64,000 bases of DNA from Candidatus Nomurabacteria bacterium (GCA_020631995.1 JACKGJ010000001.1:225753-289752), one strand, 5' to 3'; shown: positions 878 through 40,216, counted from the first letter of the stretch. Made by a program: numbers and translations. Notes: generated by a model from the sequence alone, not told the origin.

Positions 878-1315
878 TTAATCTATAACTACTTGCTCTA
901 TATACCTTACTAAAGCGTACTTTTCACGTGAAACTATATGTACGGCTATGACATCAATCTGCACTTCCCCATTCCATTCATTTTCACTTATCCAAATGTC
1001 TGCTGTCTTTCGTATTTGGTTTAGTTTAAAGCTATGGACCTGCTCCTCTGGCCTGTATGTTTCGTGTGAAACGCTCATTTCCAGCATTTCCTTGGTTTCA
1101 TATGAAACACTCTTTACTTCTACAAAATGGACTGTTTCACGTGAAAACCCATCTTTAGAAATATGTTTTGTTCCACGTGCAACAATATCTATTTCACCGT
1201 ACTTCTTCCGATAATTACGATCAATAATAGAAAAACCCTTGTTTTTAAGGTATTTTACTGCAATTGACTCCCCTAAATCCCCTACCTTCTTGGTATTTTT
1301 CTTCTTTTGTTCCAT
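878..1315 (-). CDS. yraN: YraN/UPF0102 family endonuclease-like protein
   Basis: GDLGESIAVKYLKNKGFSIIDRNYRKKYGEIDIVA...VHFVEVK...IDVIAV matches the YraN core pattern. I prefer ATG at 1315 (MEQKKK) because TATAAT lies 7 nt upstream. The track start is GTG at 1333. Confidence 0.75.
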   Translation of the reverse strand: MEQKKKNTKKVGDLGESIAVKYLKNKGFSIIDRNYRKKYGEIDIVARGTKHISKDGFSRETVHFVEVKSVSYETKEMLEMSVSHETYRPEEQVHSFKLNQIRKTADIWISENEWNGEVQIDVIAVHIVSREKYALVRYIEQVVID

Positions 1316-1395
1316 TTTAAGTATTATAACCACAATACAAGTAGATTTGAGGAACGTTTCATGTGCAACGTCACTCGGTACGTTTCACGTGAAAC
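921..1395. repeat. Six dispersed copies of the 14-bp palindrome GTTTCAYRTGAAAC
   Basis: Copies at 921-934 (TTTTCACGTGAAAC), 1059-1072 (GTTTCGTGTGAAAC), 1095-1108 (GTTTCATATGAAAC), 1134-1147 (GTTTCACGTGAAAA), 1356-1369 (GTTTCATGTGCAAC) and 1382-1395 (GTTTCACGTGAAAC). Four lie inside yraN and two lie upstream of it. Confidence 0.9.
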
Positions 1396-1807
1396 ATAGT
1401 AAAATACATTAAAGTCATAAAAGACCCTTATTTTAAGCCATTTTCGATAAATTGCCCTAAAAAATCTAATGTCCTTTATCCACTTGTCCCCTTAGTTGTC
1501 CACAATTTTGGCGTTCTGATTGTCAATTGTCGTTTTATGGGGATAAGTAGGGGAGTGAAGATGATTTTGGTAATAAGTGACGAGTAGACAGCAAATATCC
1601 TTCTATTCATAGTCGAAAAAAGACCTGTAAAAGGCGTTTTTCCGAGAGCGTGATTTCTGTATTGGTTGTCGCTATTTTATGCTGGGGTCAAGTTGCTAAG
1701 TAAAATTGTTCACTTCGCTCCAATTTATACTAAGCACTTCCTCCCCGGCCTCGACTGCTTTTGTTTCTAGGAAATGAAACAAAAACATGTCTCTGACTCA
1801 CAAAAAG

Positions 1808-2123: not shown

Positions 2124-2792
2124 TTATTTGGACAACTCCTTTGAAGCCAGTTCAATCCATTTCATGAGCTTTCGCTTCAAGTAAGCGTTCCCGATTATAG
2201 TATTTCCAACACCATTGTGCAATGTTCTTTTGTGACTTTTCCCTTGGACAATTTGAGTTTTATAAAATTGGCTTTCTGGTAGCTTAACAGCCTTCATCCA
2301 AACCTTTTTGCATTCCTTTTCGGATAGATCAGGGTAGAGAAGTAGCCAGAAACGTATGTCCTTTTTGGGCACTCCTAAGAATTCAGTAGCGAACTTAATA
2401 AAAATCGTATGTAAGGCAGGTTTAGAGTTAGTGACACGTATCAATCTGCCATCACTAGTGTCACCCTCACCAGCGTAAAGCATTAAGCCAGCCATAAAAA
2501 GAGGGGAGAGCTTGTAATGCTTATATTCAACCGAGGCACTCTTAACCGCTTCACTGTAGTGGCGCTCTCGCTCACGACCTCGATACTTATTTAAAACAGC
2601 CAGTCTCTTAACATTGTCTTTACGAGCTCGCTTTTCATTGTCCGCTCGTACCTTCTTAGAGAAGGATTGCTTAGCAAACCAAAGACTAAGTGTGCTTGGG
2701 GATACACCTACCATTTTAGAAATTTCAGAGTAGGTAAACCCACGTTTCCTAAAATCCCTAGCTTTTGCGTGCTTTTCTGCGTTTCGAATCAT
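2124..2792 (-). CDS. HTH + single LAGLIDADG-like motif protein (putative homing-endonuclease family), 8 nt upstream of tRNA-Gly
   Basis: N-terminal HTH-like RKRGFTYSEISKMVGVSPSTLSLWF. The dodecapeptide-like LFMAGLMLYAGEGD is followed by a basic C-terminal half. Paralogous in pattern to 3270-3944. TATAAT lies 6 nt before the ATG. Confidence 0.6.
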   Translation of the reverse strand: MIRNAEKHAKARDFRKRGFTYSEISKMVGVSPSTLSLWFAKQSFSKKVRADNEKRARKDNVKRLAVLNKYRGRERERHYSEAVKSASVEYKHYKLSPLFMAGLMLYAGEGDTSDGRLIRVTNSKPALHTIFIKFATEFLGVPKKDIRFWLLLYPDLSEKECKKVWMKAVKLPESQFYKTQIVQGKSHKRTLHNGVGNTIIGNAYLKRKLMKWIELASKELSK

Positions 2793-3176: not shown

Positions 3177-3177
3177 G

Positions 3178-3250
3178 TGCACCCGGAGGGACTCGAACCC
3201 CCAACCCCTTGTTCCGAAGACAAGTACTCTATCCGTTGAGCTACGGGTGC
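3178..3250 (-). tRNA. tRNA-Arg (anticodon UCG)
   Basis: Cloverleaf of 73 nt. Acceptor GCACCCG/CGGGTGC, anticodon stem CTTGT/ACAAG, loop CTTCGGA, T arm GGGGG-TTCGAGT-CCCTC. No encoded CCA. Confidence 0.9.
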
Positions 3251-3269: not shown

Positions 3270-3944
3270 TCATTTTAGGTGATGTTCAACAAGCATATTT
3301 TGCCAAAAGCGCATTTTGCAAAGCAGGTTCTTACTTCTCCTCACTTCAATCTTAATGCATCCCATATAAGCTGGTCTCTTTTTGACACCAAGTCCTGTCG
3401 GCTTGTAAATCGTTTTAACAAATCGTGAGGAAGTAACCTGCAACTTTTCCGCCCACCAGCCTTCACAATTTTCGTGAGCGTAAGGTTTATGGATATAAAG
3501 TCTAAAAAAGATATCCTCAGGGCCTATTAGTGCATATTCGTGTAACCACTGAAGCATCACTAGTATCATATCTTCGTCAGAATTTGAAAAACTCCATTGA
3601 TTTACTCTCTTAGCGCCCTCTGCCCAATACAAAGCCAAACCAACTTGAAATAAAGTATCATCCTTATATTTTTGGAATATCTGGCGAGCTTCTTGTAGCC
3701 AAAGAGCCTCTCTTTCCAACCTCCTTTTACGCAACTCAGAAGCTGCCTTAATACGACCACGAGTTATATTAGTATTTTTGCGGTCTTTTAGTACAAGCTT
3801 TTCACTTTTTGTAAGGGGAAGTTCGGCCAACCACAATGAAAGAGAACTTTTTGCCACAGGCACTTCGGCAAGGATTTCTTTATAGCTATATCCTTTTTTC
3901 CGCAAATATATAGCCCTTTCTTTTTCTTGAACCAAAGCTTTCAT
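3270..3944 (-). CDS. HTH + single LAGLIDADG-like motif protein, 19 nt upstream of tRNA-Arg
   Basis: RKKGYSYKEILAEVPVAKSSLSLWL (HTH-like) and LFQVGLALYWAEGAK (dodecapeptide-like). The domain order and length match 2124-2792. Confidence 0.6.
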   Translation of the reverse strand: MKALVQEKERAIYLRKKGYSYKEILAEVPVAKSSLSLWLAELPLTKSEKLVLKDRKNTNITRGRIKAASELRKRRLEREALWLQEARQIFQKYKDDTLFQVGLALYWAEGAKRVNQWSFSNSDEDMILVMLQWLHEYALIGPEDIFFRLYIHKPYAHENCEGWWAEKLQVTSSRFVKTIYKPTGLGVKKRPAYMGCIKIEVRRSKNLLCKMRFWQNMLVEHHLK

Positions 3945-4026
3945 ATTAGTACCAATCTATCATAGTTCATATTATTCACAGTAGTCACATATACAAATTG
4001 TGGATAAGCAAATACAATACACAAAC

Positions 4027-17029: not shown

Positions 17030-18115
17030 TTATTTTCCTCGACCAAACACACTTCTGAGTTTAGAGACGTGTTCTTCGTAGGTAGGGGAACAATAAAAAT
17101 CACCGCGATTGGCGTGAAAATAGAAGAGACAGTCTGTGATTTCTGGATTAAGGGCAGCTACAATTGCTTCTAAAGAGGGGTTAGCTATCGCACTCGGAGG
17201 AAGACCTTTATTTCGATATGTATTGAAAGGTGACTCTATGAATTTATCGGCCGGCACAGGTATTGGCCACCAAGGCTGATCGGTACGACTGCCTTTTGCA
17301 TATTGCAAAGTAGCATCGAGTTGGAGGGGCATATCAATGAATAGTCGATTCCATATCACTCCAGATATTTCGCGCATATCAGTAAAATCATATGCTTCTC
17401 TCTGGAGTAGAGAAGCTATAACTAAAACATCATTGAGAGGAAGGATGTCGCCCGCACCATTTTCGTACCTATCTAATACTTCGCTCTCAAAACGTTCATT
17501 TACCATCTGGGCCACGTCACCCGCAGATGCATCAACGGCTACCAAATAACGCTCTGGATAAAACTTTCCCTCTACTAGCGCAGGATCCTCTGATGTAACC
17601 AGTTCTAAAAAGCGGTCTCTTTCGGCCCTTTCCCAACCCAAGATGTCACCAAAGTTTTTTGCTATCTGCTCTTTACGTTCACCAGGAAAAATTACCAACA
17701 AACGGCCGCCCGGTATTGCCATCTGATACCAAGAAGAGTTACTAAGCTTGGCAATGAAGCGTGCAAACTTACCAGAAGGAACTAAAGAAGGGAAGCTCCA
17801 CTTCGCTCTACCTTCGTTCGCAATAAAACTCTCAAGGGCAGGATTCTCTGTTATTTTTTTAAGCTCTGGATTAACACCGATAGGGAACGGGGCTACCGCT
17901 ATCTTAGGTTCAGTAAGAGGGAAACTAATAGTGAGTGCCGTAAATATGGTAAGTGCCGTAAATAAAAAGAGGAGTAACAAAAAAGAACCGTAAATGGAAC
18001 GTAGTACAAAAGTAATGCGGGTATTAAAGAGAGGACGTTTAAGTAGGCGATACCAGCGCTTCTGATTTAGTCTACTTATTTTAAAGTTTTTAAGACGCCA
18101 AGTCCGCGACTTCAT
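17030..18115 (-). CDS. mltG: Endolytic murein transglycosylase MltG (YceG-like)
   Basis: N-terminal TM segment. LLQREAYDFTDMREISGVIWNRL, LQLDATLQYA and NTYRNKGLPPSAIANPSLEAI. Confidence 0.85.
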   Translation of the reverse strand: MKSRTWRLKNFKISRLNQKRWYRLLKRPLFNTRITFVLRSIYGSFLLLLFLFTALTIFTALTISFPLTEPKIAVAPFPIGVNPELKKITENPALESFIANEGRAKWSFPSLVPSGKFARFIAKLSNSSWYQMAIPGGRLLVIFPGERKEQIAKNFGDILGWERAERDRFLELVTSEDPALVEGKFYPERYLVAVDASAGDVAQMVNERFESEVLDRYENGAGDILPLNDVLVIASLLQREAYDFTDMREISGVIWNRLFIDMPLQLDATLQYAKGSRTDQPWWPIPVPADKFIESPFNTYRNKGLPPSAIANPSLEAIVAALNPEITDCLFYFHANRGDFYCSPTYEEHVSKLRSVFGRGK

Positions 18116-20172: not shown

Positions 20173-20763
20173 ATGTCAGTAATAAGACATCCAGAACAAA
20201 GAGTGGCTATCTTAATAGATACACAAAACCTTTATCATAGTGCAAAAAATCTTTATCGTTCTAAAGTAAATTTTGGGGCAGTAGTAAAAGCGGTACTAGG
20301 TGAGCGTAAACTTATTCGTGCTTTATCCTATGTAGTTAATACGGAAAGCGGGGAAGAGACTGCTTTCTTTGAAGCGTTAGAGAAACTCGGAATTGAAATA
20401 AAGACAAAAGATTTACAAATTTTTTATGGTGGTGCCAAAAAAGCCGACTGGGACGTAGGGCTCGCTATTGATGCCATCAAGCTTGCCCATAAGGTAGACG
20501 CAATTGTTATCGCAAGTGGTGACGGGGACTTCGTGCCACTAGTAGAATACATTAAGTCACAAGGTTGTCAGGTAGAAGTAGTGAGTTTTGGTCGTTCCTC
20601 TTCACAGCGACTTCGTGAAAGTGTCGACGACTTTATTGATATGGACGATGATCCTTCAGAATTCTTGATTGGTTATCGGCCAAACAAAACCAAATCTCAG
20701 AAGGAGAAATTGTCCGATGATGATGAAGTCAAAACAGTTGGCAGTGACACAGACAATATCTAG
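20173..20763 (+). CDS. NYN/LabA-like domain protein
   Basis: RVAILIDTQNLYHSAKNLY...ADWDVGLAIDAI...IASGDGDFVPLVEYIKSQG. ATG at 20173; the upstream part of the track ORF covers a structured non-coding stretch. Confidence 0.75.
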   Translation: MSVIRHPEQRVAILIDTQNLYHSAKNLYRSKVNFGAVVKAVLGERKLIRALSYVVNTESGEETAFFEALEKLGIEIKTKDLQIFYGGAKKADWDVGLAIDAIKLAHKVDAIVIASGDGDFVPLVEYIKSQGCQVEVVSFGRSSSQRLRESVDDFIDMDDDPSEFLIGYRPNKTKSQKEKLSDDDEVKTVGSDTDNI

Positions 20764-27913: not shown

Positions 27914-30900
27914 ATGATGAGATATATAGACACTCTAAACGAACGACAAAAAGAAGCGGTATTGACTACCGAAGGGCCTTTGTTGGTACTGGCTGGAGCA
28001 GGTAGTGGTAAGACTAAAACCATTACCCACCGTATTGTGCACCTCATTCACCAAGGAACAGCACCACATAATATTCTAGCGGTCACCTTCACCAACAAGG
28101 CGGCCAAAGAGATGCGTGAACGTGCACTCAGTCTTATTAAGGAATATCCTCCCTCTGAGCGCGCCTTATTAGACTCAATCCCGATAATAACCACCTTCCA
28201 CTCATTTGGTGTCCGGCTACTTAGAGAATTTCACGAGGCAGCCGGGCTTCGTCGACACTTCGTAATCTTTGACCGAGCAGATAGCGTACGTGCTATAAAG
28301 GTAGCGATTGAAAAAGCTGGGTACAATCCAAAAGAATTTGAACCTCGCAAAGTGCTCTCTATAATTTCTCGAGCTAAAGGAGATGCACTGTCCCGTGGAG
28401 ATTTCGCTGACGAAGCAAGGTCGTACCCGGAGAAAGTAGCAGTAGCTGTCTGGGAACACTACGAACAAAAACTGCGAGAAGATCACGCTTTAGACTTTGA
28501 CGACCTTTTGTTGAAGACACTACGCCTTCTGCAATCAAACCAGAACGTAAGAGAAACGCTCCAGAAACGTTTCCACTATATACACATCGATGAATACCAG
28601 GACACCAACAAAGTGCAGTATGAGATTGCTAGACTACTAGCGGGAGAGAAACAAAATATCTGTGTTGTTGGGGACATCGATCAATGTCTAATCGCTGGAA
28701 CAAAAGTAACAATGGAAGATAACAAGGTGAAGCCAATTGAAGAGATACAAAAAGGAGATTTGGTTCTTTCTAATTACGGAGGTGGTAAATTCGCACCCGC
28801 TCCTGTAGAGAGAGTATATAAAAAAAGCAATAAAAAACCCTTGATTAAAATAACCACAGCTACTGGCAAAACTATCACTAGCACCCCTGAACATACGCAC
28901 TTTGCTGGATATAGGCTAGACGTATCTCCACAATTACACTTCACATATTTGATGTACAAAAAGAATACTGGTTGGCGACTTGGTGTGACTTCTGTACATA
29001 CAAAGGGGCAAATAAGACCTCAGGTCGGTTTTATACAAAGATGCAATCAAGAAAAGGGTGACGCATTGTGGATTTTATCGACCCATCAATCTTCAAATGA
29101 AGCACGGGTCAATGAGTATTTATTGTCTTTGCGGTATCAAATCCCCACACTACCTTTTGTGGCTAGAAAAGGTGCAAGTCAAAATGGCTACGTACATAAC
29201 CAAGAGTTGTTGAATAAAATTTTTGCGTCATTTGATACTGATAATGGAGCAAGAAAATTACTGAATGACAGTCAACTACTCATTAACTACCCTCACCACC
29301 AACCCCAAGCTTCAAAGAGTGGCCGTATAAATTTAACCATCACACTCTGTGGAGATAGTCGCGGTAATTCTGTCCTACACCGCATTAGCATTGTTAGTCA
29401 AAATATAGAAGTAAAGAGAAAGTTAGAGTCACTCGGCTTGTCTGTTAGAAAAGCTAAAGCTGACAGCCCCGCCGTTCGTTTCGAAACTTCTCACAAATCT
29501 TTTAACACAATTCAAAAAATAACCTCCGACATACAACAGGTGATTCCTGACATCAACATCAATTTACGCGCCCGTTTAGCTAAACAAGCTAATAAAGATA
29601 AATTTGAAAGCGTTTCTCTTGCCTTCATGCCCGCAGTAAGTGTACGAGAAGGAATGGCGATGTTTGACGACAAAGGTGGTTATGAAATAGTAAAAAAGAC
29701 AGAAGAGGTACTTTCTAGTGATTTTGTTTATGATCTTGATATTTCAAACACTCACAACTTTATCGCTAATGGTATCGTGACCCACAACTCAATCTACTCT
29801 TGGCGCGGTGCAGATATAAAGAATGTTCTTCAATTTGAACGCCACTTTAAAAACGCCAAGACTATTCTCCTTGAACAAAACTACCGTAGCACAAAAACAA
29901 TTGTTGAAGCTTCGAATAAAGTAATTGCTAAGAACCAAAACCGGGTAGAAAAAATAGTTTTTACCGACAACCTGGAAGGGGAGAAGATTACCGTGTTTGG
30001 AGCTTTCTCTGGGGGAGAGGAGGCTGACTATATTGCGAGAGAGGCTGCCAAACTAATAGAGAACGGGGCCTCCCCGTCGGAGGTAGCTGTCTTATTTAGA
30101 ACCAACTTCCAGTCACGCGCTCTTGAAGAGGCTTTTTTAAACCAAGACATTCCTTATCAGGTATTAGGGGTAAAATTCTTTGAACGTAAAGAAGTAAAAG
30201 ACGTGTTGTCTTACCTACGTCTATCACTCAACCCAGGATCAAGTGCTGATTTGGCACGAGTGATTAATTCGCCAGCGAGGGGGATCGGCAAAGTAACCGT
30301 GCTAAAAGTTCTATCTGGACAACGCAATGAATTAAAAGGAGCGACTCTAGCTAAAGTAGAAGCCTTTGACCAGATGATGATGGACATAGCTGACGAAGCA
30401 AGAACGAAAAAACTATCTGAGACTCTACGTTTTATCATCACTAGAACCGGGCTCGAAATGACCCTGAAAAAAGGTGGCACTGACGAAGATTTAGAGAGGC
30501 TAGAAAACTTACGGGAGCTGGTTTCACTATCAACTCGTTACGACGAGATGGGGCCAGAGGAGGGAGTGGAGGCTTTATTAGAAGACGCTGCTCTCCAAAG
30601 TGACCAAGATGAAATAAAAGAAAAGGAGGAAAAGGATGCTGTACTACTAATGACCGTACACGCTGCAAAAGGTTTGGAGTTTCCCTATGTCTTTGTGAGT
30701 GGACTTGAAGAAGGACTATTCCCGCACGAGCGACTCGACGCCACTGGCATTGATCAAGAAGAGGAGAGACGATTATTTTATGTGGCCTTAACTCGGGCCG
30801 GAGTGAAACTCTGGCTTACGTACGCCAATTCACGAATGATCTTTGGTTCAACTCGAGTTAACCTACCTTCTTCATTCCTTATGGATATTGATCCTGAACT

Positions 30901-31003
30901 AGTAGAACTTGAAGGTTCAGGACGTGCCGGTGGAAAAGCTGCTCGTAAAGCAGGTCTACTTGATGATTGGGATGACTGGGATGAGGGTTATGTCATAACT
31001 TAG
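27914..31003 (+). CDS. pcrA: PcrA/UvrD-type DNA helicase interrupted by an in-frame intein
   Basis: Motif I GAGSGKT, Ia TFTNKAA, II DEYQDT. Motif III is split as VVGDIDQ | intein | SIYSWRGAD. Later motifs are LEQNYRS, TVHAAKGLEF and RRLFYVALTRA. The extein totals 661 aa. Confidence 0.9.
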   Translation: MMRYIDTLNERQKEAVLTTEGPLLVLAGAGSGKTKTITHRIVHLIHQGTAPHNILAVTFTNKAAKEMRERALSLIKEYPPSERALLDSIPIITTFHSFGVRLLREFHEAAGLRRHFVIFDRADSVRAIKVAIEKAGYNPKEFEPRKVLSIISRAKGDALSRGDFADEARSYPEKVAVAVWEHYEQKLREDHALDFDDLLLKTLRLLQSNQNVRETLQKRFHYIHIDEYQDTNKVQYEIARLLAGEKQNICVVGDIDQCLIAGTKVTMEDNKVKPIEEIQKGDLVLSNYGGGKFAPAPVERVYKKSNKKPLIKITTATGKTITSTPEHTHFAGYRLDVSPQLHFTYLMYKKNTGWRLGVTSVHTKGQIRPQVGFIQRCNQEKGDALWILSTHQSSNEARVNEYLLSLRYQIPTLPFVARKGASQNGYVHNQELLNKIFASFDTDNGARKLLNDSQLLINYPHHQPQASKSGRINLTITLCGDSRGNSVLHRISIVSQNIEVKRKLESLGLSVRKAKADSPAVRFETSHKSFNTIQKITSDIQQVIPDININLRARLAKQANKDKFESVSLAFMPAVSVREGMAMFDDKGGYEIVKKTEEVLSSDFVYDLDISNTHNFIANGIVTHNSIYSWRGADIKNVLQFERHFKNAKTILLEQNYRSTKTIVEASNKVIAKNQNRVEKIVFTDNLEGEKITVFGAFSGGEEADYIAREAAKLIENGASPSEVAVLFRTNFQSRALEEAFLNQDIPYQVLGVKFFERKEVKDVLSYLRLSLNPGSSADLARVINSPARGIGKVTVLKVLSGQRNELKGATLAKVEAFDQMMMDIADEARTKKLSETLRFIITRTGLEMTLKKGGTDEDLERLENLRELVSLSTRYDEMGPEEGVEALLEDAALQSDQDEIKEKEEKDAVLLMTVHAAKGLEFPYVFVSGLEEGLFPHERLDATGIDQEEERRLFYVALTRAGVKLWLTYANSRMIFGSTRVNLPSSFLMDIDPELVELEGSGRAGGKAARKAGLLDDWDDWDEGYVIT
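28685..29788 (+). mobile_element. Intein (368 aa) in PcrA helicase motif III
   Basis: It starts with Cys (CLIAGTKV...), has block B TSTPEHTHF, and ends ...VYDLDISNTHNFIANGIVTHN followed by Ser+1. The coordinates are in frame with 27914. The central ~230 aa have no LAGLIDADG or HNH motif that I can see. Confidence 0.85.
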
Positions 31004-31248: not shown

Positions 31249-32079
31249 ATGCTGACTAGAATGGATAGGTTTGAAACAAAAAAGTCTCTGGGGCAAAATT
31301 TTCTAAACAGCAAGGTGGTGCCTGAGTGGCTTTGTGATGCCGGGGAAGTGGTGGCCGGAGATTTAATCTTAGAAATCGGACCTGGTACTGGAGCTCTAAC
31401 AGAGGCACTATTGTCGCGTGGTGCCCGAGTGCTCGCTCTCGAAGCCGACTTGCGGGCAATTGAAATACTGAAAGATAAGTTCAAGGATGAATTAAAGAGT
31501 GGACAATTAAGCTTAGAACATACTGATGTCCGGGAGCTAGACTTGGCTAAATTTGGGCTTCAAGACCACAGCTTCAAGGTGGTAGCTAATATTCCATACT
31601 ACCTGACTGGATTTTTATTTAGAGTACTACTCTCACATGACATCCAACCTTCTACACTGGTCTTCTTGGTGCAAAAAGAAGTAGGGAAGAGAGCCTCATC
31701 TAATATTCAAAAGGGAGAAAAGGAATCATTACTCTCTCTTTCCCTGCAAGCCTTTGGGGATGTGAAGTATGTAAAGACTGTTGGAAGAGGACACTTTTCA
31801 CCATCACCCAAGGTAGATTCAGCTATCGTGCTGGTACATAACATCAACCGAGATAAATTTAAAGAACATTCTGCGGACTTCTTTTTTGAAATACTGCACT
31901 TAGGCTTTGGCTCAAAAAGAAAGCAATTGCTTGGTAATTTAGCAAAAAAATATCCCCGACCGAGACTTTTAGAAATATTTAATGTGGCCGATATAGAGCC
32001 TAATGCTCGCGCGGAAGATGTTCCAATCTGGAAGTGGCTCACCCTAACTAGAACATTGGAAAACGAACTAGAAGCATAA
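31249..32079 (+). CDS. rsmA: 16S rRNA (adenine1518/1519-N6)-dimethyltransferase
   Basis: KKSLGQNFL, EIGPGTGALT and NIPYY. The ATG lies after the pcrA terminator hairpin ACCCGTC-ata-GACGGGT (31211-31227). The track start at 31099 is rejected. Confidence 0.85.
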   Translation: MLTRMDRFETKKSLGQNFLNSKVVPEWLCDAGEVVAGDLILEIGPGTGALTEALLSRGARVLALEADLRAIEILKDKFKDELKSGQLSLEHTDVRELDLAKFGLQDHSFKVVANIPYYLTGFLFRVLLSHDIQPSTLVFLVQKEVGKRASSNIQKGEKESLLSLSLQAFGDVKYVKTVGRGHFSPSPKVDSAIVLVHNINRDKFKEHSADFFFEILHLGFGSKRKQLLGNLAKKYPRPRLLEIFNVADIEPNARAEDVPIWKWLTLTRTLENELEA

Positions 32080-32131
32080 CTGGATAACAGTCGCTCTTCT
32101 CTTAGGGGCGACTGTTATAATATATGTACTA

Positions 32132-32965
32132 ATGAGAATAAACCCTCGCATCGCGATAGCATTTATGATCGGCCTCGTAATGGTCGGCGGTTCTTATTTT
32201 GTGTCTAATAATTCCGAGTCAAAGGAAACAAATAGCCAACTTATAACAACAACGAGCAAACCAGCACGCCAGTTTATTGCAGTTACCGACGAAGACCGAG
32301 ATGGGTTACCCGACTGGCAAAATTCTCTTTCCCTCAATACTGTAAATTTAGATGAGCAGGAGGGGAATACACGAACCAGTGCCTTAGCTGTGAAGCTGGC
32401 CACTTTGACCGCCACCTCTGAAAACAACTCTGATACTATTCTTGCGTCAGTAGGGAGTGAACTGGCTCAAGAAAGCTTTGATACACAGTTCACTCGCGAC
32501 GATATCCTAGTAATTGAAGACAATACACTATCTTCCCTACGCTCCTATGGTAACAAAATCGCTTCCATTGCTCTCGACAACGCTCCACCAATCGGTACGG
32601 AAGATGAATTAACTCTCCTTAATCGGGCTCTGGTACGCAATGATCCCAATGTTCTTGATGAACTCTCTCCAACCATCACTTCTTATGAGAGAATGGTAGA
32701 GGCAATGTTAGTGACCAACGTTCCTTCATCAATGGTACGTGAACACCTGGCCTTACTGAATGTCTACCAAGCAATCCTCAATGACATCAAAGCGTTCCAA
32801 GGAGTATTCACAGATGCTTTACCATCAATGATTCGCTTCCGTCGCTATCAGGCTGATGCTGAAGCCCTATATCTTGCCCTTAACTTTTTATATCTTCAAC
32901 TACACGACCGAGGCATCGTGTGGGGACCAACTGATAGAACATCGCAATTCATAATTATAGAATAA
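32132..32965 (+). CDS. T4SS-like cluster gene 1: membrane-anchored hypothetical
   Basis: N-terminal TM segment IAIAFMIGLVMVGGSYFV, acidic DEDRDGLPDWQ motif, helical C-terminal half. Confidence 0.5.
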   Translation: MRINPRIAIAFMIGLVMVGGSYFVSNNSESKETNSQLITTTSKPARQFIAVTDEDRDGLPDWQNSLSLNTVNLDEQEGNTRTSALAVKLATLTATSENNSDTILASVGSELAQESFDTQFTRDDILVIEDNTLSSLRSYGNKIASIALDNAPPIGTEDELTLLNRALVRNDPNVLDELSPTITSYERMVEAMLVTNVPSSMVREHLALLNVYQAILNDIKAFQGVFTDALPSMIRFRRYQADAEALYLALNFLYLQLHDRGIVWGPTDRTSQFIIIE

Positions 32966-32967
32966 GT

Positions 32968-34551
32968 ATGAGATTTTCACTCCTAAAAACAAAAACTTTG
33001 TTAATTGTAGTAGCGATGATTGTTCTGTCCCATGGTTATTTTGGAGTGGAAAAAGCTGAAGCTTTTCTTGGTTCACTACTCGGTGGACTTGGTGGTGGTG
33101 ATGCGGTACGAGTGGTAAGTGATACATCTGAGTCATCAATTACTACAGCCCTACAAAATACTTTAGCTAGAATATTCGGTGGAATAGCTTCTGGTGAACT
33201 CCAATCAATCAATCTGAAGGAGACAGTACTTGATCCAATTGCTTGGAATATGGCCAAACAACTACAGCAACAAATGACTGGGGATTTACTGAAGTGGTTA
33301 GGTGGTCAACTACCTGGACAGGAAGGTGAAATTCCATTCGTAACAGATTTCTCTGGATTCTATGGTGACCTACTGGACAACGTAGCCGGGGATGTCATAT
33401 TCGGTGGTGACTTGAGTGGCCTTTGTTCTGAGGAGGAGGATTTTAAGGCAAAGCAAAAGGCTTACAACTCTTATATTAAAAGTCGAAATAAACAAGAAAT
33501 TTTTTCTTGCAATGAAGAAGACTTATCCAACCCTAACCAAGAAAGTCTTTTAACGAAGATATTTAAAGGTACTGTCAGCTGTGATGGTAATGATATTTGT
33601 GTCGGATACAAGGCAGATAACCATCTTGCACTCAAACAAGCTAACGCTATAGCCAACGAGAATAGGGCACTAGACTACAGTCGTGGAATGAAACCACAAA
33701 GAGTATGTAAGGTTATCAATGATCCAGACGGAAAACCTCGTCAACTTTGTGAAATCGTGAGTCCTCTATATCTAGCCGCAGACAATGCATCTTTCCAAAT
33801 CAACCAAGTGCCTAGTCTCCAATTGTTACAGATAGACGAATTTAATGAAATCGTGTCTGGCTTTATGACACAACTTACCAGTGAAGCAGTGACTGGTATC
33901 AGCTCGCTCGCCAATGGCGTAGACTTCACCGGTGTACTTGGTCTCAGTGGTAATCCTGACTTCACCAACTTGCTCTTTGGAAGTGACGGGGGATTATCAT
34001 ATGTAGACGGCCTGATAAAAGATGATGTATCAAGCTACCAAGATGTGGGTATTAATCCAATCCAGCAATCATTGACCATAGAACAAACAAACCTTTCAAT
34101 GCAAAACTTCATTTTCAATGAAGTCAACAGTCTGAATACAAAAACTATTTCTAATCAGGAAACATACGGCAGTTGCTACAATCTGCCTTTGACCGCTGAA
34201 CTCACAAGTGCCCTTGAGAGTGCAAAAGTTAATATGAACATCGCTTCCACCTCAGTGGCCATATTGTCCACCTTGAATAACCAGTACACGAACGCTCCGG
34301 ACGCTAGTGCCAAAAATTCTGTTATATCTGTCTATGCAAGCTACAGGAATCAGGGATTTTTCAGTACCGAGCAAAAAAATCAGGAACTTAAGATTAGTTT
34401 CATTGACCATACTTTTGCAATAATAGTTGATCAATTCAAGTATCAAATGGCTGTTGAACAACAAAAATGTGGCGGGGAGTTCGATTACGACGGTCTGATA
34501 ACTAACAATGACTCCTCTAATGATCAAAACGGTAGTAGTGATGGTAACTAA
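32968..34551 (+). CDS. T4SS-like cluster gene 2: exported hypothetical (527 aa)
   Basis: Signal/anchor LLIVVAMIVLSHGYFGVEKAEA, several Cys pairs, Asn/Ser-rich tail. Confidence 0.5.
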   Translation: MRFSLLKTKTLLIVVAMIVLSHGYFGVEKAEAFLGSLLGGLGGGDAVRVVSDTSESSITTALQNTLARIFGGIASGELQSINLKETVLDPIAWNMAKQLQQQMTGDLLKWLGGQLPGQEGEIPFVTDFSGFYGDLLDNVAGDVIFGGDLSGLCSEEEDFKAKQKAYNSYIKSRNKQEIFSCNEEDLSNPNQESLLTKIFKGTVSCDGNDICVGYKADNHLALKQANAIANENRALDYSRGMKPQRVCKVINDPDGKPRQLCEIVSPLYLAADNASFQINQVPSLQLLQIDEFNEIVSGFMTQLTSEAVTGISSLANGVDFTGVLGLSGNPDFTNLLFGSDGGLSYVDGLIKDDVSSYQDVGINPIQQSLTIEQTNLSMQNFIFNEVNSLNTKTISNQETYGSCYNLPLTAELTSALESAKVNMNIASTSVAILSTLNNQYTNAPDASAKNSVISVYASYRNQGFFSTEQKNQELKISFIDHTFAIIVDQFKYQMAVEQQKCGGEFDYDGLITNNDSSNDQNGSSDGN

Positions 34552-34556
34552 ACCTA

Positions 34557-36590
34557 ATGACTATGAACTTCTTTAGCAGAAAATTGGGGATTATCTTGAT
34601 AACCTGTTTCGTGCTGGGTTTTTTTGCTATACAGATACAAAGCCCTACTGTTGCTTTAGCCCTGACTGCCGAGGAACTTGCCGAAGCAGAAGGTGCTGCC
34701 GCAGGTGGTGGCGCAAATTTCATTGACGAAAACTACACCGCACCTGAATCTAATGACGGTCCTCCTAGCGTGGGGGAGAGACTGCAATTCACTAAGTGGA
34801 ATTTGACTATCTTTAATATGCTCTCCTCCTTAGGGGTCTTGGTTGCTTGGCTCGGAGGGTCACTTCTAGATGCCACAATAGGTGTCTTCACAGTTGGGAT
34901 GTATGAGACATCAGAATATTTTCAACTCGACAGAACAATCCAAACGATGTGGGGGATTATTCGAGATATTTTCAATCTGCTTTTTATCTTTGGACTTATT
35001 TTCGCTGGATTTAAACTAATCCTTGGTAAAGATGACTCGGGTTCTAAGAAAATGATTGGTTCTATTATTGTCGCGGCACTACTTATCAACTTCAGTCTAT
35101 ATGCAGCACAAGTAGTAGTCGACTTCAGTAACGTTGTGGCGTATCAAATTAATGAATTGATACAACCACCAGAAACTACAGTTGTTTTAGGTGGCTGGAG
35201 CGTACCCAATATCTCTACCAGTTTCACACAACTTACCAACCTAGACCAACTTGGAAACCAGTCAGGAGAGATGGCTGAAGTGGCTGGACTGGGGGTAGAC
35301 ACATTTGGTGCGGCAATAGTTTTGGGGATTTTATTCACGGTTTTCTACTCTGTCTTAGGTTTTGTTTTTGCAGCCGGTGCTTTCGTATTGTTCTCACGAT
35401 TCATTACCTTAATCTTTTTGATGATTTTTTCACCGATAATGTTCCTTGGCTTTATATTTCCTAATTTCAAGGAATACAGCAGTAAGTGGCTCAAGTTACT
35501 TATGAATCAGGCACTAGTTGGTCCAGCCTTCCTCTTTATGCTCTACCTCTCTCTACAAGCATTGTCAGGCCTGGCTAGTATTCCACCTTCACAATTTACT
35601 ATAATCAACTTAACCATATATCTCCTTATTGTAGTGGCTTTCTTGTGGGGTTCACTAATGGTCGCCAGGAGTATGAGTAATTGGGGGGCCTTGCAAGCTT
35701 ATAACGCCGGAGACGTAGCGAGTAAGTATGCACGGAGAGTGACAGGCGGTACTACGGCAGGACTAGCTGGCAGAGGCCTAAGAGCAAGTGTTGGTAAATG
35801 GTCGCAAGGTTATGCGGAAAGTGACAAAGCCAAGGATCGCGCAGCTAACAGCTGGGTGGGACGTCGAGCGCTCAACGTCACCAGCAAACTAGGTGACAGC
35901 AGTTTTGACGCGCGCAAGGTCGGTGGAGTAGGAAAAAAACTTGGTCTCGGCGAGGGTTTAAAAGAAGGATATGCTACTAAGACCAAGAACATAATAGAAA
36001 GAGAAAAGAAGTATGCTGAGAGATTAGGACCAGTAAGTGAGAATGATGAACGTGTATCTAACCTTCAAATAGATATAGAGGCAAGCGAACAGATGATAAA
36101 AGATAAGAAAAAGGAAATTAAAGATGCACAACTCTTGAAGAAAAATGCTACCACTGATGATGATAGGAATAAAATACAGGCAGATATCGATCTAAAGAGA
36201 TCTGAAATTGAGACCTATGAAGAAGACTTACAAAAGAGAAAGGAGGTCTTACAGTCAGAAAAGTACCGCAGACAACTAGGAACTATTCCCACAACCACTG
36301 CTGATAGCCTGAAGGCAAAGAGAGATCAAATAAAGACTAAGCTGGTAGATTATGAAAAAGCCTTACCAGAGGACAAAGGGCCAATACGAGAAGAGATAGC
36401 AAGACTTAAAAAGGAATTGGCTGAGGCAGAGAAAGAAGCTAGTAAGGAAGCGGGCGGATACGCTACAACAATTGAAAGTTATGGACGTGTCAAGAATTGG
36501 TTCATTAGCAGAAATAAGGACCAGAATAATGAAGCAGGTAAGGAAATTCGTAAGGAATACAAAAGTAAGGTGAAGAGTAAGGAAAATTAG
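34557..36590 (+). CDS. T4SS-like cluster gene 3: polytopic membrane protein, VirB6/TrbL-like, with Lys/Glu coiled-coil tail
   Basis: Signal-like N-terminus, at least 6 hydrophobic helices (for example NLLFIFGLIFAGFKLILG and FLMIFSPIMFLGFIFP), and a ~250-aa charged C-terminus. The assignment rests on topology and context only. Confidence 0.45.
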   Translation: MTMNFFSRKLGIILITCFVLGFFAIQIQSPTVALALTAEELAEAEGAAAGGGANFIDENYTAPESNDGPPSVGERLQFTKWNLTIFNMLSSLGVLVAWLGGSLLDATIGVFTVGMYETSEYFQLDRTIQTMWGIIRDIFNLLFIFGLIFAGFKLILGKDDSGSKKMIGSIIVAALLINFSLYAAQVVVDFSNVVAYQINELIQPPETTVVLGGWSVPNISTSFTQLTNLDQLGNQSGEMAEVAGLGVDTFGAAIVLGILFTVFYSVLGFVFAAGAFVLFSRFITLIFLMIFSPIMFLGFIFPNFKEYSSKWLKLLMNQALVGPAFLFMLYLSLQALSGLASIPPSQFTIINLTIYLLIVVAFLWGSLMVARSMSNWGALQAYNAGDVASKYARRVTGGTTAGLAGRGLRASVGKWSQGYAESDKAKDRAANSWVGRRALNVTSKLGDSSFDARKVGGVGKKLGLGEGLKEGYATKTKNIIEREKKYAERLGPVSENDERVSNLQIDIEASEQMIKDKKKEIKDAQLLKKNATTDDDRNKIQADIDLKRSEIETYEEDLQKRKEVLQSEKYRRQLGTIPTTTADSLKAKRDQIKTKLVDYEKALPEDKGPIREEIARLKKELAEAEKEASKEAGGYATTIESYGRVKNWFISRNKDQNNEAGKEIRKEYKSKVKSKEN

Positions 36591-36593
36591 AAT

Positions 36594-37190
36594 ATGTACG
36601 ACACATCACAACAACCAGAAATGATGCGTGAGCGCTATTCAGAACTACCTAATGAGGTACGTGAGCTTTTTGATTACGGAACAGTTGAGCAAACTTTACA
36701 GAAAATTAGCAACGAATTTGGTTTAAGGCAGGAAGACATTCCGCTAATCCAAATGGAAATAGACCTTATATTGTATGGCTTCTTAACTAGGGAAGATTTA
36801 CCTGCAAGACTGCAAGAATCGCTTAATATAGAGGAGACGCGTGCTAACCAAATAGCGGAGCGTCTTGAAGAAGATCTATTTATAATTGTTGATCGATTCC
36901 TTACCTATGTGGAAGAATTATTAGCAGATGATGAAGGTGGCAAACAACCACTTACTACAAATCAACCTCAATCTAAGGAAAACTCGACTCCAACACCAAA
37001 AGTTTCCAGTACTGCTGTAGAGCAGTCTGAGGAAGTTGGTGCCTCAATCAAACCTCTTCGCACCTTCGCCGAAGATGTTGAACTTAGTCGAGTACACGGT
37101 TATGGTACTTTCCAAAGCGGGGAAGTTACTGAGGACGCTGACGACACTCCAGTACACCGCTCAAATCAGGATGATATAATCAACAAGTAA
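36594..37190 (+). CDS. T4SS-like cluster gene 4: acidic cytoplasmic hypothetical
   Basis: An ORF with no TM segment, lying 3 nt after gene 3. Confidence 0.45.
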   Translation: MYDTSQQPEMMRERYSELPNEVRELFDYGTVEQTLQKISNEFGLRQEDIPLIQMEIDLILYGFLTREDLPARLQESLNIEETRANQIAERLEEDLFIIVDRFLTYVEELLADDEGGKQPLTTNQPQSKENSTPTPKVSSTAVEQSEEVGASIKPLRTFAEDVELSRVHGYGTFQSGEVTEDADDTPVHRSNQDDIINK

Positions 37191-37237
37191 AAAGTTGAGA
37201 CTGGCTTGTCGATACTTTAAACTTTGAACTACATAGT

Positions 37238-37648
37238 ATGCGCTTTGAAGTTCCACAATTTATTGAAATAGAAGACAAAATATTTGGTCCACTAACCTGG
37301 AAGCAATTTGTGTATGTTGCTGGTGGGGGAGGGTTAGCTGCTGTGTTTTTCTTCTTTACTCCGTTTATCATATTTGTATTAATCGGTATTCCAATTGCTA
37401 TCCTAACTTTCCTTTTAAGTTTTTATCCAGTTAACAATCGTCCCTTTGTTTTATTTCTTGAATCTGCAGTCAACTACTTTAAGGGTTCGAAGCTGTACTT
37501 ATGGCGGAAAAGTGGCAGTGGGGTATACAAAGGTGCCGAAATCGAAGCCAGTGGTAGCCCATCATATATGCCTCCAACTAGCGCTGATAATATCGCTTCT
37601 TTGTCGAGGAGGTTAGAGATGAAGGCAATACAAAAACCTAATCAGTAG
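37238..37648 (+). CDS. T4SS-like cluster gene 5: PrgI/VirB3-like small membrane protein
   Basis: MRFEVPQFIEIEDKIFGPLTWKQFVYVAGG followed by two TM helices, the pattern I associate with PrgI-family proteins. Confidence 0.6.
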   Translation: MRFEVPQFIEIEDKIFGPLTWKQFVYVAGGGGLAAVFFFFTPFIIFVLIGIPIAILTFLLSFYPVNNRPFVLFLESAVNYFKGSKLYLWRKSGSGVYKGAEIEASGSPSYMPPTSADNIASLSRRLEMKAIQKPNQ

Positions 37649-37767
37649 CATTTGTTTTAAAGTGGTACTCCTGTGTCCAGCCTTGAGAGTGAGTTTATAC
37701 ATATAGTTGACGGTGTGAGTTAAGTGTCAATTTAAAGCTGTTGGATGTTAGAATATTAATATCAACA

Positions 37768-38403
37768 ATGGCAAATCAGAACACTAGTCAAAAATTCGTA
37801 CCACTTAGAGACATCAAAGATAATGTGGTGATTCTTAAAAATGGCCAAATGAATATGGTGCTTTTAGCGTCTTCGATTAACTTCGCACTGAAGTCACTAG
37901 ACGAACAGGAAGCAATCCTGCGACAGTTTCAAACATTCCTAAACACCATAGACTTCTCAGTGCAATTTTATATTCAATCTCGTCGACTGAATATTCAGCC
38001 CTACCTCGATATGTTATCTGGTCGTGAAGAAAAACAAGATAATGACCTGATGAAGATTCAGCTTCGTGAATATATGCAATTCATCAAGACTTTTACCACC
38101 GAGGTAGAGGTGATGAGTAAAAGTTTCTTTATTGTTGTGCCATACACACCTGTTGCGGCCAACCTTCAAAACAATCTTGAAGGATTCAAGGATTTAATCG
38201 GAGGGAAGAAAGACGTATACTTTGACGACAAGAACTTTATGGAGCATAAGCTTCAACTTGAGCAACGTGTCTCATTAGTAGAGCAAGGGCTGTCTGGAAT
38301 AGGCGTGCGCACCATTTTATTGCAAAGCGAAGAGTTAGTTGAATTGTATTATCACATCTTCAATCCCGGCGAGGTTGGAGGGACCGCACCAGGTGGTAAA
38401 TAG
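37768..38403 (+). CDS. T4SS-like cluster gene 6: stand-alone VirB4 N-domain-like protein
   Basis: FVPLRDIKDNVVILKNGQMNMVLLASSINFALKSLDEQEAILRQFQTFLNTIDFSVQFYIQSRRLNIQPYL parallels the N-terminal domain pattern of the adjacent VirB4. No Walker motifs. Confidence 0.45.
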   Translation: MANQNTSQKFVPLRDIKDNVVILKNGQMNMVLLASSINFALKSLDEQEAILRQFQTFLNTIDFSVQFYIQSRRLNIQPYLDMLSGREEKQDNDLMKIQLREYMQFIKTFTTEVEVMSKSFFIVVPYTPVAANLQNNLEGFKDLIGGKKDVYFDDKNFMEHKLQLEQRVSLVEQGLSGIGVRTILLQSEELVELYYHIFNPGEVGGTAPGGK

Positions 38404-38407
38404 TTTT

Positions 38408-40210
38408 ATGGGAATTTTTGATTTTATAAAAAAAGGGAACAGAGAAGGAGACAACAAATCAGCGCTAGACACTGAGAGTGCTTTAATGACACTTGAAGAT
38501 GTAGTGGCGCCTTCGGCTGTATCAGTCAGCCCACGCAGCATTAGTATCAGCGGACAAAACGCTCGAGTATTTTTCGCAGTTTCATATCCTCGCTATCTCA
38601 ATGACGGTTGGCTAGAACCGATTCTTAACCTAGAGAAGGAACTAGATGTTTCAATAGTCATTCACCCTATTGATACCGCTGAGACTTTAAAAAAATTCCA
38701 AAAGAAAGTGGCCGAGGTACAGAGTCAGATTAGTATGAACGAAGAGAAGGGAATGGTGCGTGACCCACAACTTGAAGCTGCTTATCGAAACCTAGAAGAA
38801 CTTCGAGACAAGCTCCAACAGGCTGAGGAAAAGCTGTTTGATGTTGGCCTTTATATTGCCGTCTACGGTAAAGATGATGACGCGCTCAACAAAACTGAGT
38901 CAGAGGTGAAGGGTATTTTGGATTCAAGACTAGTCTATATAAAACCTGCTCTTTTCCAGCAAGAACAAGGTTTGCGAAGCGTCTTACCTACAATGACTGA
39001 TGAATTATTAGTGCATAGTAAATTTAATTCTTCACCTTTATCTAGCTTCTTCCCGTTCACTTCGTTTGACCTAACTAGCGACAACGGTATTCTCTACGGT
39101 ATCAACCGCCATAATTCCTCACTGGTACTATTCGATCGCTTTTCGCTCACCAACTACAACTCTGTTACTTTTGCTACTTCTGGAGCGGGTAAGTCTTATG
39201 CAATCAAACTCGAAATATTGCGCTCTTTGATGTTCGGCACAGAGGTCATTGTCATCGACCCAGAACGTGAATATGAGTACTTAGCTGAAGCAACTGGTGG
39301 ACGATTTTTCAACATTGCACTTTCCTCTGCTCACCACATTAACCCATTTGATTTGCCCGATCCGCAAGAGGACGAAGAACCAATGGACATTTTGCGTTCA
39401 CATATTATTGAATTAACCGGACTCTTCCGTTTAATGCTTGGGGGACTTACGCCTGAAGAGGAGACAGTTATCGATCAAGCCCTGCACGAAGTCTACGCCC
39501 TCAAGGACATTACTGGTGACGTAAGTTGGTCAGGACAAGAACCGCCACTTTTGACTGACTTTGAAATGGTACTAGCTGGAATGGATGGCAGTGATTCACT
39601 AATTGCTAGACTACAAAAGTACACCAGCGGTACTTGGTCGGGCTTTATGAACCAACCTACTAACGTAGACATCAATCAAAAGTTCATCGTTTTCTCCCTC
39701 CGCGATATGGAAGACGAACTAAAGTCCGTAGCTATGTACATCATCACGAATCATATTTGGAATATGGTTCGCCGACGACTAAAGAAGCGTTTACTAGTAA
39801 TCGACGAGGCCTGGTGGATGATGAAGTCAGAGGACACCGCCTCCTTCCTCTTTTCACTCGCCAAACGTGGTCGTAAATATTATCTTGGTATCGCCACCAT
39901 CACACAGGACGTAGACGACTTCTTGCGCTCACCTTATGGAGTACCGATGATTACAAACTCTTCATTGCAGTTTTTAATGAAACAATCACCGACTTCAATT
40001 GACCTTCTTCAACGCACCTTTAACCTAACAGATGAAGAAAAACTATTGCTCCTAGAAAGTAACGTAGGGGAGGGAATCTTCTTCGTCGGACTCAAACACG
40101 TAGCTATTAAAGTTATTGCTAGTTACACTGAAGACCAAATCATCACCTCTGACCCTCACCAAATTCTCCAAATCAAGCAAGCTCGAGCTGAATTAAAGAG
40201 CGCCTCTTAA
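38408..40210 (+). CDS. virB4: T4SS-like cluster gene 7: VirB4/TrbE-family ATPase
   Basis: N-domain (ISISGQNARVFFAVSYPRYLNDGWLEPIL...DVSIVIHPI), Walker A TSGAGKSYAIK, Walker B LLVIDEAWWMM, and ATITQDVDDF. ATG at 38408. Confidence 0.85.
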   Translation: MGIFDFIKKGNREGDNKSALDTESALMTLEDVVAPSAVSVSPRSISISGQNARVFFAVSYPRYLNDGWLEPILNLEKELDVSIVIHPIDTAETLKKFQKKVAEVQSQISMNEEKGMVRDPQLEAAYRNLEELRDKLQQAEEKLFDVGLYIAVYGKDDDALNKTESEVKGILDSRLVYIKPALFQQEQGLRSVLPTMTDELLVHSKFNSSPLSSFFPFTSFDLTSDNGILYGINRHNSSLVLFDRFSLTNYNSVTFATSGAGKSYAIKLEILRSLMFGTEVIVIDPEREYEYLAEATGGRFFNIALSSAHHINPFDLPDPQEDEEPMDILRSHIIELTGLFRLMLGGLTPEEETVIDQALHEVYALKDITGDVSWSGQEPPLLTDFEMVLAGMDGSDSLIARLQKYTSGTWSGFMNQPTNVDINQKFIVFSLRDMEDELKSVAMYIITNHIWNMVRRRLKKRLLVIDEAWWMMKSEDTASFLFSLAKRGRKYYLGIATITQDVDDFLRSPYGVPMITNSSLQFLMKQSPTSIDLLQRTFNLTDEEKLLLLESNVGEGIFFVGLKHVAIKVIASYTEDQIITSDPHQILQIKQARAELKSAS

Positions 40211-40216
40211 CGCATT

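Follow-up and report, generated by a model that had tools for sequence, protein, structure and literature searches.

Why should one short gene carry, in and just upstream of its coding sequence, copy after copy of the same 14-bp palindrome? The question is raised by the beginning of a 64,000-nucleotide stretch of DNA from Candidatus Nomurabacteria bacterium (GCA_020631995.1 JACKGJ010000001.1:225753-289752), which was analysed over its whole length and is referred to here as the window, and the gene concerned is yraN. An original prediction had offered three identities for the palindromes, i.e., an autoregulatory operator, a target of YraN itself, or a mobile element; none of these fits, and parS, the chromosomal centromere-like site that is bound by ParB/Spo0J in the ParABS system, was not considered there. 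Judged from their sequence, the palindromes can be read with good confidence as an array of chromosomal parS sites, of which one (at 1382) is consensus and six are degenerate.

An array of parS-like palindromes

At a tolerance of up to two mismatches, seven copies of GTTTCACGTGAAAC are present, all within 475 bp, which corresponds to a local density of about 15 sites per kb; five of the seven are located inside the 438-bp yraN, where they are spread over 260 bp of coding sequence, and two upstream of its ATG. The gene and the sites are the following (AF2 standing for AlphaFold2):

878 to 1315, minus strand: yraN (UPF0102, predicted PD-(D/E)xK nuclease fold), 145 amino acids, ATG at 1315; Pfam PF02021
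921 to 934, no strand: parS-like site 1, TTTTCACGTGAAAC, 1 mismatch; yraN codons 128-132 (VSREK), beta-hairpin turn in the AF2 model
1059 to 1072, no strand: parS-like site 2, GTTTCGTGTGAAAC, 2 mismatches; yraN codons 82-86 (VSHET)
1095 to 1108, no strand: parS-like site 3, GTTTCATATGAAAC, centre TA for CG; yraN codons 70-74 (VSYET), immediately behind the catalytic motif FVEVK
1134 to 1147, no strand: parS-like site 4, GTTTCACGTGAAAA, 1 mismatch; yraN codons 57-61 (FSRET), variable lineage-specific loop insertion
1170 to 1183, no strand: parS-like site 5, GTTCCACGTGCAAC, 2 mismatches; yraN codons 45-49 (VARGT), end of the GEIDIVAR nuclease motif
1356 to 1369, no strand: parS-like site 6, GTTTCATGTGCAAC, 2 mismatches; intergenic, 26 bp from site 7
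1382 to 1395, no strand: parS-like site 7, GTTTCACGTGAAAC, perfect 14-mer; intergenic, 67-80 bp upstream of the yraN ATG

In the other 63.5 kb of the window no further copy with up to two mismatches to the 14-mer was found, and 100 dinucleotide-preserving shuffles of the 64 kb, searched at the same tolerance, gave a mean of 0.25 and a maximum of 2 copies; chance is thus excluded, and the earlier claim of a non-random density is upheld. The original prediction had counted six copies, and all six of its positions are indeed near-palindromic, while the one at 1170 had been overlooked. Its pattern, GTTTCAYRTGAAAC, matches exactly only at 1095 (GTTTCATATGAAAC) and 1382 (GTTTCACGTGAAAC), with the copies at 921 (TTTTCACGTGAAAC), 1059 (GTTTCGTGTGAAAC), 1134 (GTTTCACGTGAAAA) and 1356 (GTTTCATGTGCAAC) each being one base off; as an exact search with it returned only these two sites, mismatch searches against GTTTCACGTGAAAC were needed. 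Translation bears out that the in-gene copies share one reading frame and encode FSRET, VSYET, VSHET and VSREK, and the overlooked copy, which encodes VARGT (VSRET at this position in some homologues), is read in the same frame.

One line of evidence for parS is the sequence itself. Chromosomal parS is TGTTNCACGTGAAACA in B. subtilis (10 sites) and C. glutamicum (10 sites), GTTTCACGTGAAAC in M. smegmatis (3 sites), and TGTTTCACGTGAAACA in Hyphomonas (PMC7022226, Table 1); the sites are mostly found in the origin domain, several per chromosome being usual (PMC7022226). The window motif GTTTCACGTGAAAC is, thus, identical to the parS of M. smegmatis, and it forms the core of the consensus TGTTNCACGTGAAACA shared by B. 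subtilis and C. glutamicum. Around site 7, positions 1381-1396 agree at 15 of 16 bases with the 16-bp inverted repeat TGTTNCACGTGAAACA, and likewise with the 16-mer TGTTTCACGTGAAACA, whereas the other six copies carry one or two mismatches to the 14-mer; site 7 is predicted to be the primary high-affinity site. In a position weight matrix compiled from 80 related species (see below), the flanking bases, which had not been used in picking the matches, are T in 52-55% on the 5' side and A in 43-61% on the 3' side, which extends the 14-mer to the canonical 16-mer TGTTTCACGTGAAACA. The same matrix has G at position 2 and A at position 7, a combination that we take to be of the parS type and not of the Noc-site type, based on ParB/Noc specificity. 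Finally, the sites are few, clustered and rare elsewhere, both in the window and in the flanks of the 80 species.

Conservation in relatives and the level of selection

To these observations on a single locus, those on its relatives can be added. A combined pattern and tblastn scan of one genome per species recovered at least 585 relatives of this YraN, of which the best 80 were taken with up to 10 kb of flanking DNA; the records are labelled Nomura-, Kaiser-, Yonath- and Taylorbacteria, Paceibacterota, Minisyncoccia and Parcubacteria. With up to two mismatches allowed, the 75 kb around yraN contain 355 motif matches and the remaining 1.2 Mb contain 130. Relative to the yraN start, their density is 5.4 per kb at 0 to 500 and 3.4 per kb at -500 to 0, falling off to -3 kb, and about 0.01 per kb elsewhere; 39 of the 40 exact 14-mers and all 13 exact 16-mers are located in the arrays. 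An array comprises 6.0 sites on average (range 0-12), with a median span of 953 bp. A perfect 14-mer equivalent to site 7 is present within 300 bp upstream of yraN in 30 of the 80 species, and the 26 bp between sites 6 and 7 fall within the modal spacing of neighbouring intergenic sites (24-26 bp).

In other species, the sites extend up to 3 kb into unrelated genes, occur on both strands, and are also found downstream of yraN. Outside yraN, 155 sites lie outside any open reading frame (ORF) of at least 100 amino acids, 95 are read as V-S-R-E-T, 31 as F-H-V-K, and 12 in the frame that contains TGA; i.e., about half are intergenic or outside such ORFs, and of those in unrelated genes 69% use the VSRET frame. 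A case in point is one locus (L043), in which the internal yraN sites have decayed while the array goes on in genes for a peptide deformylase, a citrate-lyase-like protein and a membrane protein, where the sites are again read as xSRET-type peptides. That the array stays in place at yraN can be explained by the double constraint on any site within a conserved gene; sites in the flanks are gained and lost, resulting in variable array tails.

This distribution bears on whether the palindromes could be a miniature mobile element or a restriction-modification or uptake-signal motif with a chance concentration at this place. Restriction-modification systems do recognise sequences of this type, i.e., short perfect palindromes, the core here being CACGTG; however, mobile, restriction-modification or uptake motifs would be dispersed, and hardly any copy of this one occurs in the other 63.5 kb of the window or in about 0.87 Mb of flanks in the 80 species. 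Moreover, the copies share only 14-16 bp and have no common flanks, terminal repeats or target duplications, as would characterise miniature inverted-repeat transposable elements or repetitive extragenic palindromes, so that we give hardly any credence to this explanation.

Selection on the DNA can be told apart from selection on the protein at the silent positions. In a codon alignment of the 80 yraN orthologues, the commonest codon of each column was compared with the background usage from long ORFs of the same loci. For VSYET (site 3), the counts are GTT in 69 of 73 for V70 (background 28%), TCA in 67 of 75 for S71 (23%), TAT in 49 of 53 for Y72 (55%), GAA in 68 of 68 for E73 (61%), and ACA in 38 of 56 for T74 (24%), the wobble base of Thr74 thus being biased to A, which is base 16 of parS. 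For VSHET (site 2), GTT is used in 55 of 58 for V82, TCA in 32 of 46 for S83, and CAT in 31 of 31 for H84; in the V(P/S)RE equivalent of site 1, CCA is used in 38 of 38 for P129, CGT in 40 of 44 for R130, and GAA in 50 of 53; and R47 in site 5 is CGT in 24 of 33 against a background of 24%. Motif codons reach -log10 P values of 8-34, whereas elsewhere only F64 (TTT in 74 of 79) reaches 8 and almost all others stay below 5. Synonymous positions are, therefore, frozen essentially only under the motif; selection, thus, acts on the DNA, whatever the coding context, and the motif is also found in intergenic DNA and in unrelated genes. The VSxET-type peptides are, thus, largely a by-product, i.e., the translation of a selected DNA site. 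The original prediction had named orthologues with the peptides but without the palindrome as an outcome that would speak against it; in fact, the orthologues keep both, with the silent positions frozen, which favours a DNA element and supports its intuition of a protein-binding element laid over the coding sequence.

The converse, namely that the palindromes are the by-product of a functionally important repeated peptide (V/F)S(R/Y/H)E(T/K) in YraN, has in its favour that VSYET and HET are nearly invariant in the subfamily and that at least one such pentapeptide is present in 118 of 120 YraN homologues. Selection on the protein, however, cannot freeze the choice of codons exactly and only there (GTT, TCA, GAA, CGT, CCA), nor would it place the same 14-mer in intergenic DNA and other genes or bias the third base of Thr to A, and the background usage shows that the codon bias is not a genome-wide one for these amino acids; this reading is, hence, very improbable. 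As to the frame, the palindrome can be read as GTT TCA CGT GAA ACN (V-S-R-E-T), as F-H-V-K, or in a third frame that contains TGA; the five yraN sites are read as VSRET, the only hydrophilic open frame. The B. subtilis parS site inside spo0J encodes VPRET, in the same frame as the yraN sites.

The host protein itself belongs to the YraN/UPF0102 family. It matches Pfam PF02021 with 71.9 bits (cutoff 23.6), is identical to the NCBI entry 'YraN family protein [Candidatus Nomurabacteria bacterium]', and matches the NCBIfam YraN equivalog models at E ~1e-20, yet below their own strict cutoffs. D43, E66 and K68 are invariant in 27 homologues, and the AF2 model (predicted local distance difference test score, pLDDT, 85) has its best PDB match in 3FOV, a solved UPF0102 protein (E 7e-8; template modelling score 0.85 normalised to the target). 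On this model, the sites map to strand ends, a helix end, the hairpin turn and a low-confidence loop, which by the model would be places where such constraints are tolerable. The earlier view that the peptide segments are insertions holds for FSRET, which is situated in a variable lineage-specific loop (amino acids 50-60; pLDDT ~60) that is absent from some homologues; VSYET and VSHET are extra with regard to the Pfam model (111 residues on 80 positions), but the segment is conserved throughout the YraN subfamily.

The two intergenic copies raise the possibility of operators for transcriptional (auto)regulation of yraN. The relevant upstream element is:

1323 to 1328, minus strand: TATAAT hexamer, 7 nt upstream of the yraN ATG

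From its sequence, this hexamer is a possible -10 element of a near-leaderless yraN transcript. Its distance of 7 nt to the ATG and the 26-bp spacing of the upstream copies had both been described correctly, but these copies do not cover the -35 region as had been claimed: site 6 (1356-1369) ends 4 nt upstream of the expected -35 (1346-1351, with a 17-nt spacer) and only abuts it. A consensus promoter scan requiring both hexamers called no promoter on the yraN strand, and the promoter/terminator scan was uninformative for this gene; Rfam, run over 700-2200, matched no family except tRNA-Gly, and an RNA-level explanation was, therefore, dropped. Two copies 23-80 bp upstream of the ATG would suit an operator, and proteins of the ParB family, like others that bind palindromes, are able to repress promoters in their vicinity (PMC7022226). 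Against this, five of the seven sites are spread over 260 bp of coding sequence instead of being confined to the promoter or 5' region, the sites of other species reach far into unrelated genes, on either strand, and occur downstream of yraN as well, and an array this extensive is not needed for one gene of 145 amino acids. We, thus, regard operators as decidedly unlikely; if the sites affect yraN expression, they more likely do so incidentally, through their occupancy by ParB.

ParB as the candidate reader

If the array is parS, its reader should be ParB, and we infer this protein, with the segregation and SMC roles downstream of it. ParB/Spo0J is a CTPase clamp, and the loading, sliding and partition-complex steps are established ParABS biology. 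Accordingly arranged, the proposed sequence of events would be that ParB dimers recognise each site via their helix-turn-helix (HTH) domains, nucleating on the strong site at 1382 and on its weaker neighbours; that ParB then binds CTP, closes to a clamp and slides onto flanking DNA; and that repeated loading from seven close sites builds up a dense partition complex at a putatively origin-proximal locus, which would serve ParA-driven segregation and/or SMC loading. The VSxET peptides of YraN would largely be dictated by selection on the DNA sites, with the middle codon (Y/H/R) being a compromise with protein function.

Several observations weigh against parS. Three of the seven sites have a non-CG centre (CATATG, CACACG, CATGTG), including the best-conserved in-gene site (VSYET), and only one of the seven is consensus. 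No ParA or ParB was found in the 64-kb window (Pfam search of most ORFs of at least 110 amino acids; ParB hidden Markov model (HMM) and tblastn in six frames), nor within 10 kb of yraN in the 80 species (1.27 Mb of flanks; tblastn and ParB HMM). The HMM was built from 60 retrieved ParBs and run on the six-frame ORFs of the window and 85 loci, the tblastn queries were Spo0J and Soj sequences, and a crude regular expression for ParB/ParA was negative as well; in a database search with a hand-made consensus ParB, the named proteins among the 120 best-scoring ParBs listed were mostly from Firmicutes. As to position, the array is found about 45 kb from dnaA-dnaN and the BUS-like core described below (in three fetched species, dnaA is 1.4-8.7 kb from yraN). 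This would suit parS sites, which are characteristically close to the origin and often multiple; the GC skew and the gene orientation, however, point to another switch point, and a place of the array inside the ori domain is putative.

An alternative is a reader other than ParB, either YraN itself, as a nuclease-fold protein that would mark or cut its own locus, or the conserved HTH proteins encoded upstream (2124-2792 and 3270-3944), with the likeness to parS being convergent or left over from a ParB system since lost. In favour of this, across the 80 species the array is tied to yraN, with neither ParB nor ParA found within 10 kb or in the 64-kb window, homologues of the HTH proteins HTH222 and HTH224 are conserved upstream of yraN in 45 and 33 of the 80 species, respectively, and the fold of YraN is restriction-enzyme-like. 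Yet, a 16-bp identity with the pan-bacterial ParB site, including the positions that separate parS from Noc sites, is hard to reach by convergence, and parS sites far from parAB occur in other bacteria. With regard to the HTH proteins, the arrays persist without their genes (35 of the 80 species are without HTH222 within 10 kb); with regard to YraN, the L043 gene is devoid of internal sites while the array continues in its neighbours, and a nuclease cutting its own gene would need a protecting modification, of which there is no sign. We, therefore, consider a non-ParB reader unlikely. For the more specific idea that the palindrome is YraN's own target, nothing speaks beyond co-location, and the motif is base-for-base canonical parS.

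Known systems provide precedents for parts of this arrangement. With the chromosomal parS of B. subtilis (TGTTNCACGTGAAACA) and M. smegmatis (GTTTCACGTGAAAC), the array has in common a 14/16-bp palindrome that is present in multiple copies, rare elsewhere, tolerated in coding sequences and, here putatively, origin-proximal. It differs in having seven sites in 475 bp, with five in one 438-bp gene, mostly degenerate and three with non-CG centres, as well as in the lack of parAB in the window or within 10 kb in the 80 species and in an association with yraN that is kept across a class-level clade. In M. xanthus, 22 parS sites are contained in about 3 kb, about 4 kb from parA and about 35 kb from oriC (PMC3899335). 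Both are dense tandem parS arrays tens of kb from oriC, the one of M. xanthus acting as one compound centromere; however, the latter adjoins parAB at about 7 sites per kb, whereas the array described here is unlinked from parAB, reaches about 15 per kb in the window, is largely in-frame in a conserved gene and is smaller (mean of 6 sites and median span of ~950 bp across species). Thus, dense parS arrays (M. xanthus) and intragenic parS (the spo0J site) are already known; what is new here are five in-frame sites that shape the signature peptides of a protein subfamily, and an array that is set apart from parAB and paired with one of DnaA-box-like sequences. To our knowledge, about 15 sites per kb is the highest local parS density.

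On parS or ParB in Patescibacteria, the candidate phyla radiation, Parcubacteria or Minisyncoccus, or together with YraN, nothing on point was found in the searchable literature, nor was anything on how chromosomes are segregated in Paceibacteria/Parcubacteria; as far as this literature shows, the array is the first described candidate centromere for Paceibacteria. If the parS assignment is true, it marks the chromosomal centromere of a large uncultured class of ultrasmall bacteria (Paceibacteria/Parcubacteria), concerning no fewer than 80 species-level genomes, a number that probably exceeds 585. It would also be a clean natural case of overlapping codes, in which an array of sites sets about 20 codons as well as the signature peptides (VSYET, VSHET, V(P/S)RE) of a whole protein subfamily, which bears on how conserved motifs in YraN/UPF0102 proteins, and the family models built from them, are read. 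In practical terms, the yraN array could be used as a landmark for orienting metagenome-assembled genomes of Paceibacteria and as a candidate centromere for vectors.

Origin context and other features of the window

In the window, the gene order is rpmH-rnpA-yidC, dnaA (44852-46270) and dnaN (46754-47848). According to the basal unwinding (BUS) rule, one or more DnaA boxes are followed, after a spacer of up to 16 bp, by at least three DnaA-trios and AT-rich DNA 3' of 5'-TTATCCACA-3' (PMC8287927). Three features are of relevance:

46562 to 46611, plus strand: BUS-like origin core in the dnaA-dnaN spacer, AATCCACA-GGG-CTA ATA GTA GTA, then an AT-rich run
1476 to 1504, plus strand: DnaA-box-like 9-mer array, TTATCCACT, a degenerate middle box and TTGTCCACA; one more box on the opposite strand at 1538-1546
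1396 to 1475, no strand: AT-rich spacer that separates the DnaA-box-like array from the best parS and contains a conserved 'atGGCTtaaaATAAGGgt' block

The arrangement at 46562-46611 fits the BUS rules of PMC8287927, and a BUS-like core is also present in the dnaA-dnaN spacers of L061 (~17060-17110), L079 (~3690-3740) and L082 (~20290-20340), the three fetched species that have dnaA within 10 kb of yraN; by its sequence, it is the probable oriC unwinding site.

Next to yraN, a tandem array of DnaA-box-like 9-mers in the same orientation is found 100-250 bp upstream of the gene in 74 of the 80 species (comparison of the window with L006-L085), reading TGTGGATAA-N3-nGTGGATAn-GTGGATAA-AGGACA in the orientation of yraN. 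In three 50-bp bins, box matches number 129 in one orientation versus 5 in the other, at about 14-fold (up to one mismatch) and about 20-fold (perfect boxes) the background. Beyond the boxes follow 80-110 bp of DNA with 67-69% AT, and then the best parS; the same AT content holds for -150 to -50 of yraN, as compared with about 56% in the flanks. In the mean of the 80 loci, the GC skew changes sign and the gene-strand bias flips at yraN. Along the window, the cumulative GC skew is lowest at about 4 kb and rises on through dnaA, and nearly all genes between 4 and 43 kb are on the plus strand, so that skew and gene orientation point to a switch elsewhere than at the dnaA-dnaN BUS.

The box peak, the AT-rich DNA and the skew and strand switch would be compatible with an oriC abutting yraN. 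This candidate was set aside because a canonical BUS-like core is conserved at dnaA-dnaN and the orientation of the yraN boxes does not conform to the BUS rule: at yraN, the boxes have the AT-rich DNA on their other side and are not followed by any convincing run of DnaA-trios. The skew switch near yraN would fit a replication switch there, which conflicts with the BUS at dnaA-dnaN. That the yraN locus, with its parS-like and DnaA-box-like arrays, is a lineage-specific replication/segregation module read by YraN or another protein, or a true replication switch point, appears improbable to us. Judging by its boxes, the DnaA-box-like array may be a DnaA-box cluster or titration site, the remnant half of a bipartite origin, or an element of promoter control.

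DnaA-box clusters (DBCs) outside oriC are known from B. subtilis (DBCs) and E. coli (datA/DARS), and bipartite origins from B. subtilis (incAB/incC) and H. pylori (oriC1/oriC2). With these, the array at yraN shares tandem TTATCCACA-like boxes of the same orientation with a periodicity of about 10-11 bp, an AT-rich neighbour, and a position away from the dnaA-dnaN unwinding element. It differs from them in being fixed at 100-250 bp from a parS array in 74 of the 80 species, and in the lack of BUS-type DnaA-trios on the yraN side. The pairing of parS with DnaA-box-like sites suggests a physical link of initiation control and segregation.

A second group of boxes, i.e., a perfect DnaA box (3999-4007, minus strand) and one with a single mismatch (3972-3980), was found exactly at the minimum of the cumulative GC skew, in a 55-bp divergent spacer (3972-4007 boxes) between the ORF for a 224-amino-acid HTH protein and the gene for a CCA-adding enzyme. 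On the other side of yraN, 26 bp after its stop codon, a perfect 19-bp inverted repeat with a 3-nt centre (GATGTCCTTTATAAAAGAC-AAT-GTCTTTTATAAAGGACATC) is located at 812-852; its 'TAAAGGACA' half recurs by the DnaA-box-like array (1469-1479) and also, as palindromes, at the same locus in L028 and L031. From its sequence, the repeat may form a terminator hairpin or serve as a third motif for protein binding.

Three ORFs adjoin tRNA genes, namely 2124-2792 (minus strand) by tRNA-Gly (2044-2115), 3270-3944 (minus strand) by tRNA-Arg (3177-3250), and 60431-61258 (plus strand) by tRNA-Lys (60354-60427). The first two show weak similarity to one another; 2124-2792 has weak N-terminal HTH matches, and a LAGLIDADG-like motif was recognised in both by eye only, while 60431-61258 has a Pfam LAGLIDADG_3 match; no firm family could be assigned to the three. 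At 27914-31003, a UvrD/PcrA-type helicase of 1029 amino acids is encoded that is interrupted by an intein (Intein_splicing/Hint, approximately amino acids 255-625). It is followed, at about 32000-43400, by a run of plus-strand ORFs mostly without Pfam matches, among them a VirB4/TraG-type P-loop ATPase (38339-40210) and a PrgI-like protein (37238-37648); by its gene content, this run may be a type IV secretion/conjugation-like cluster just upstream of yidC-rnpA-rpmH-dnaA.

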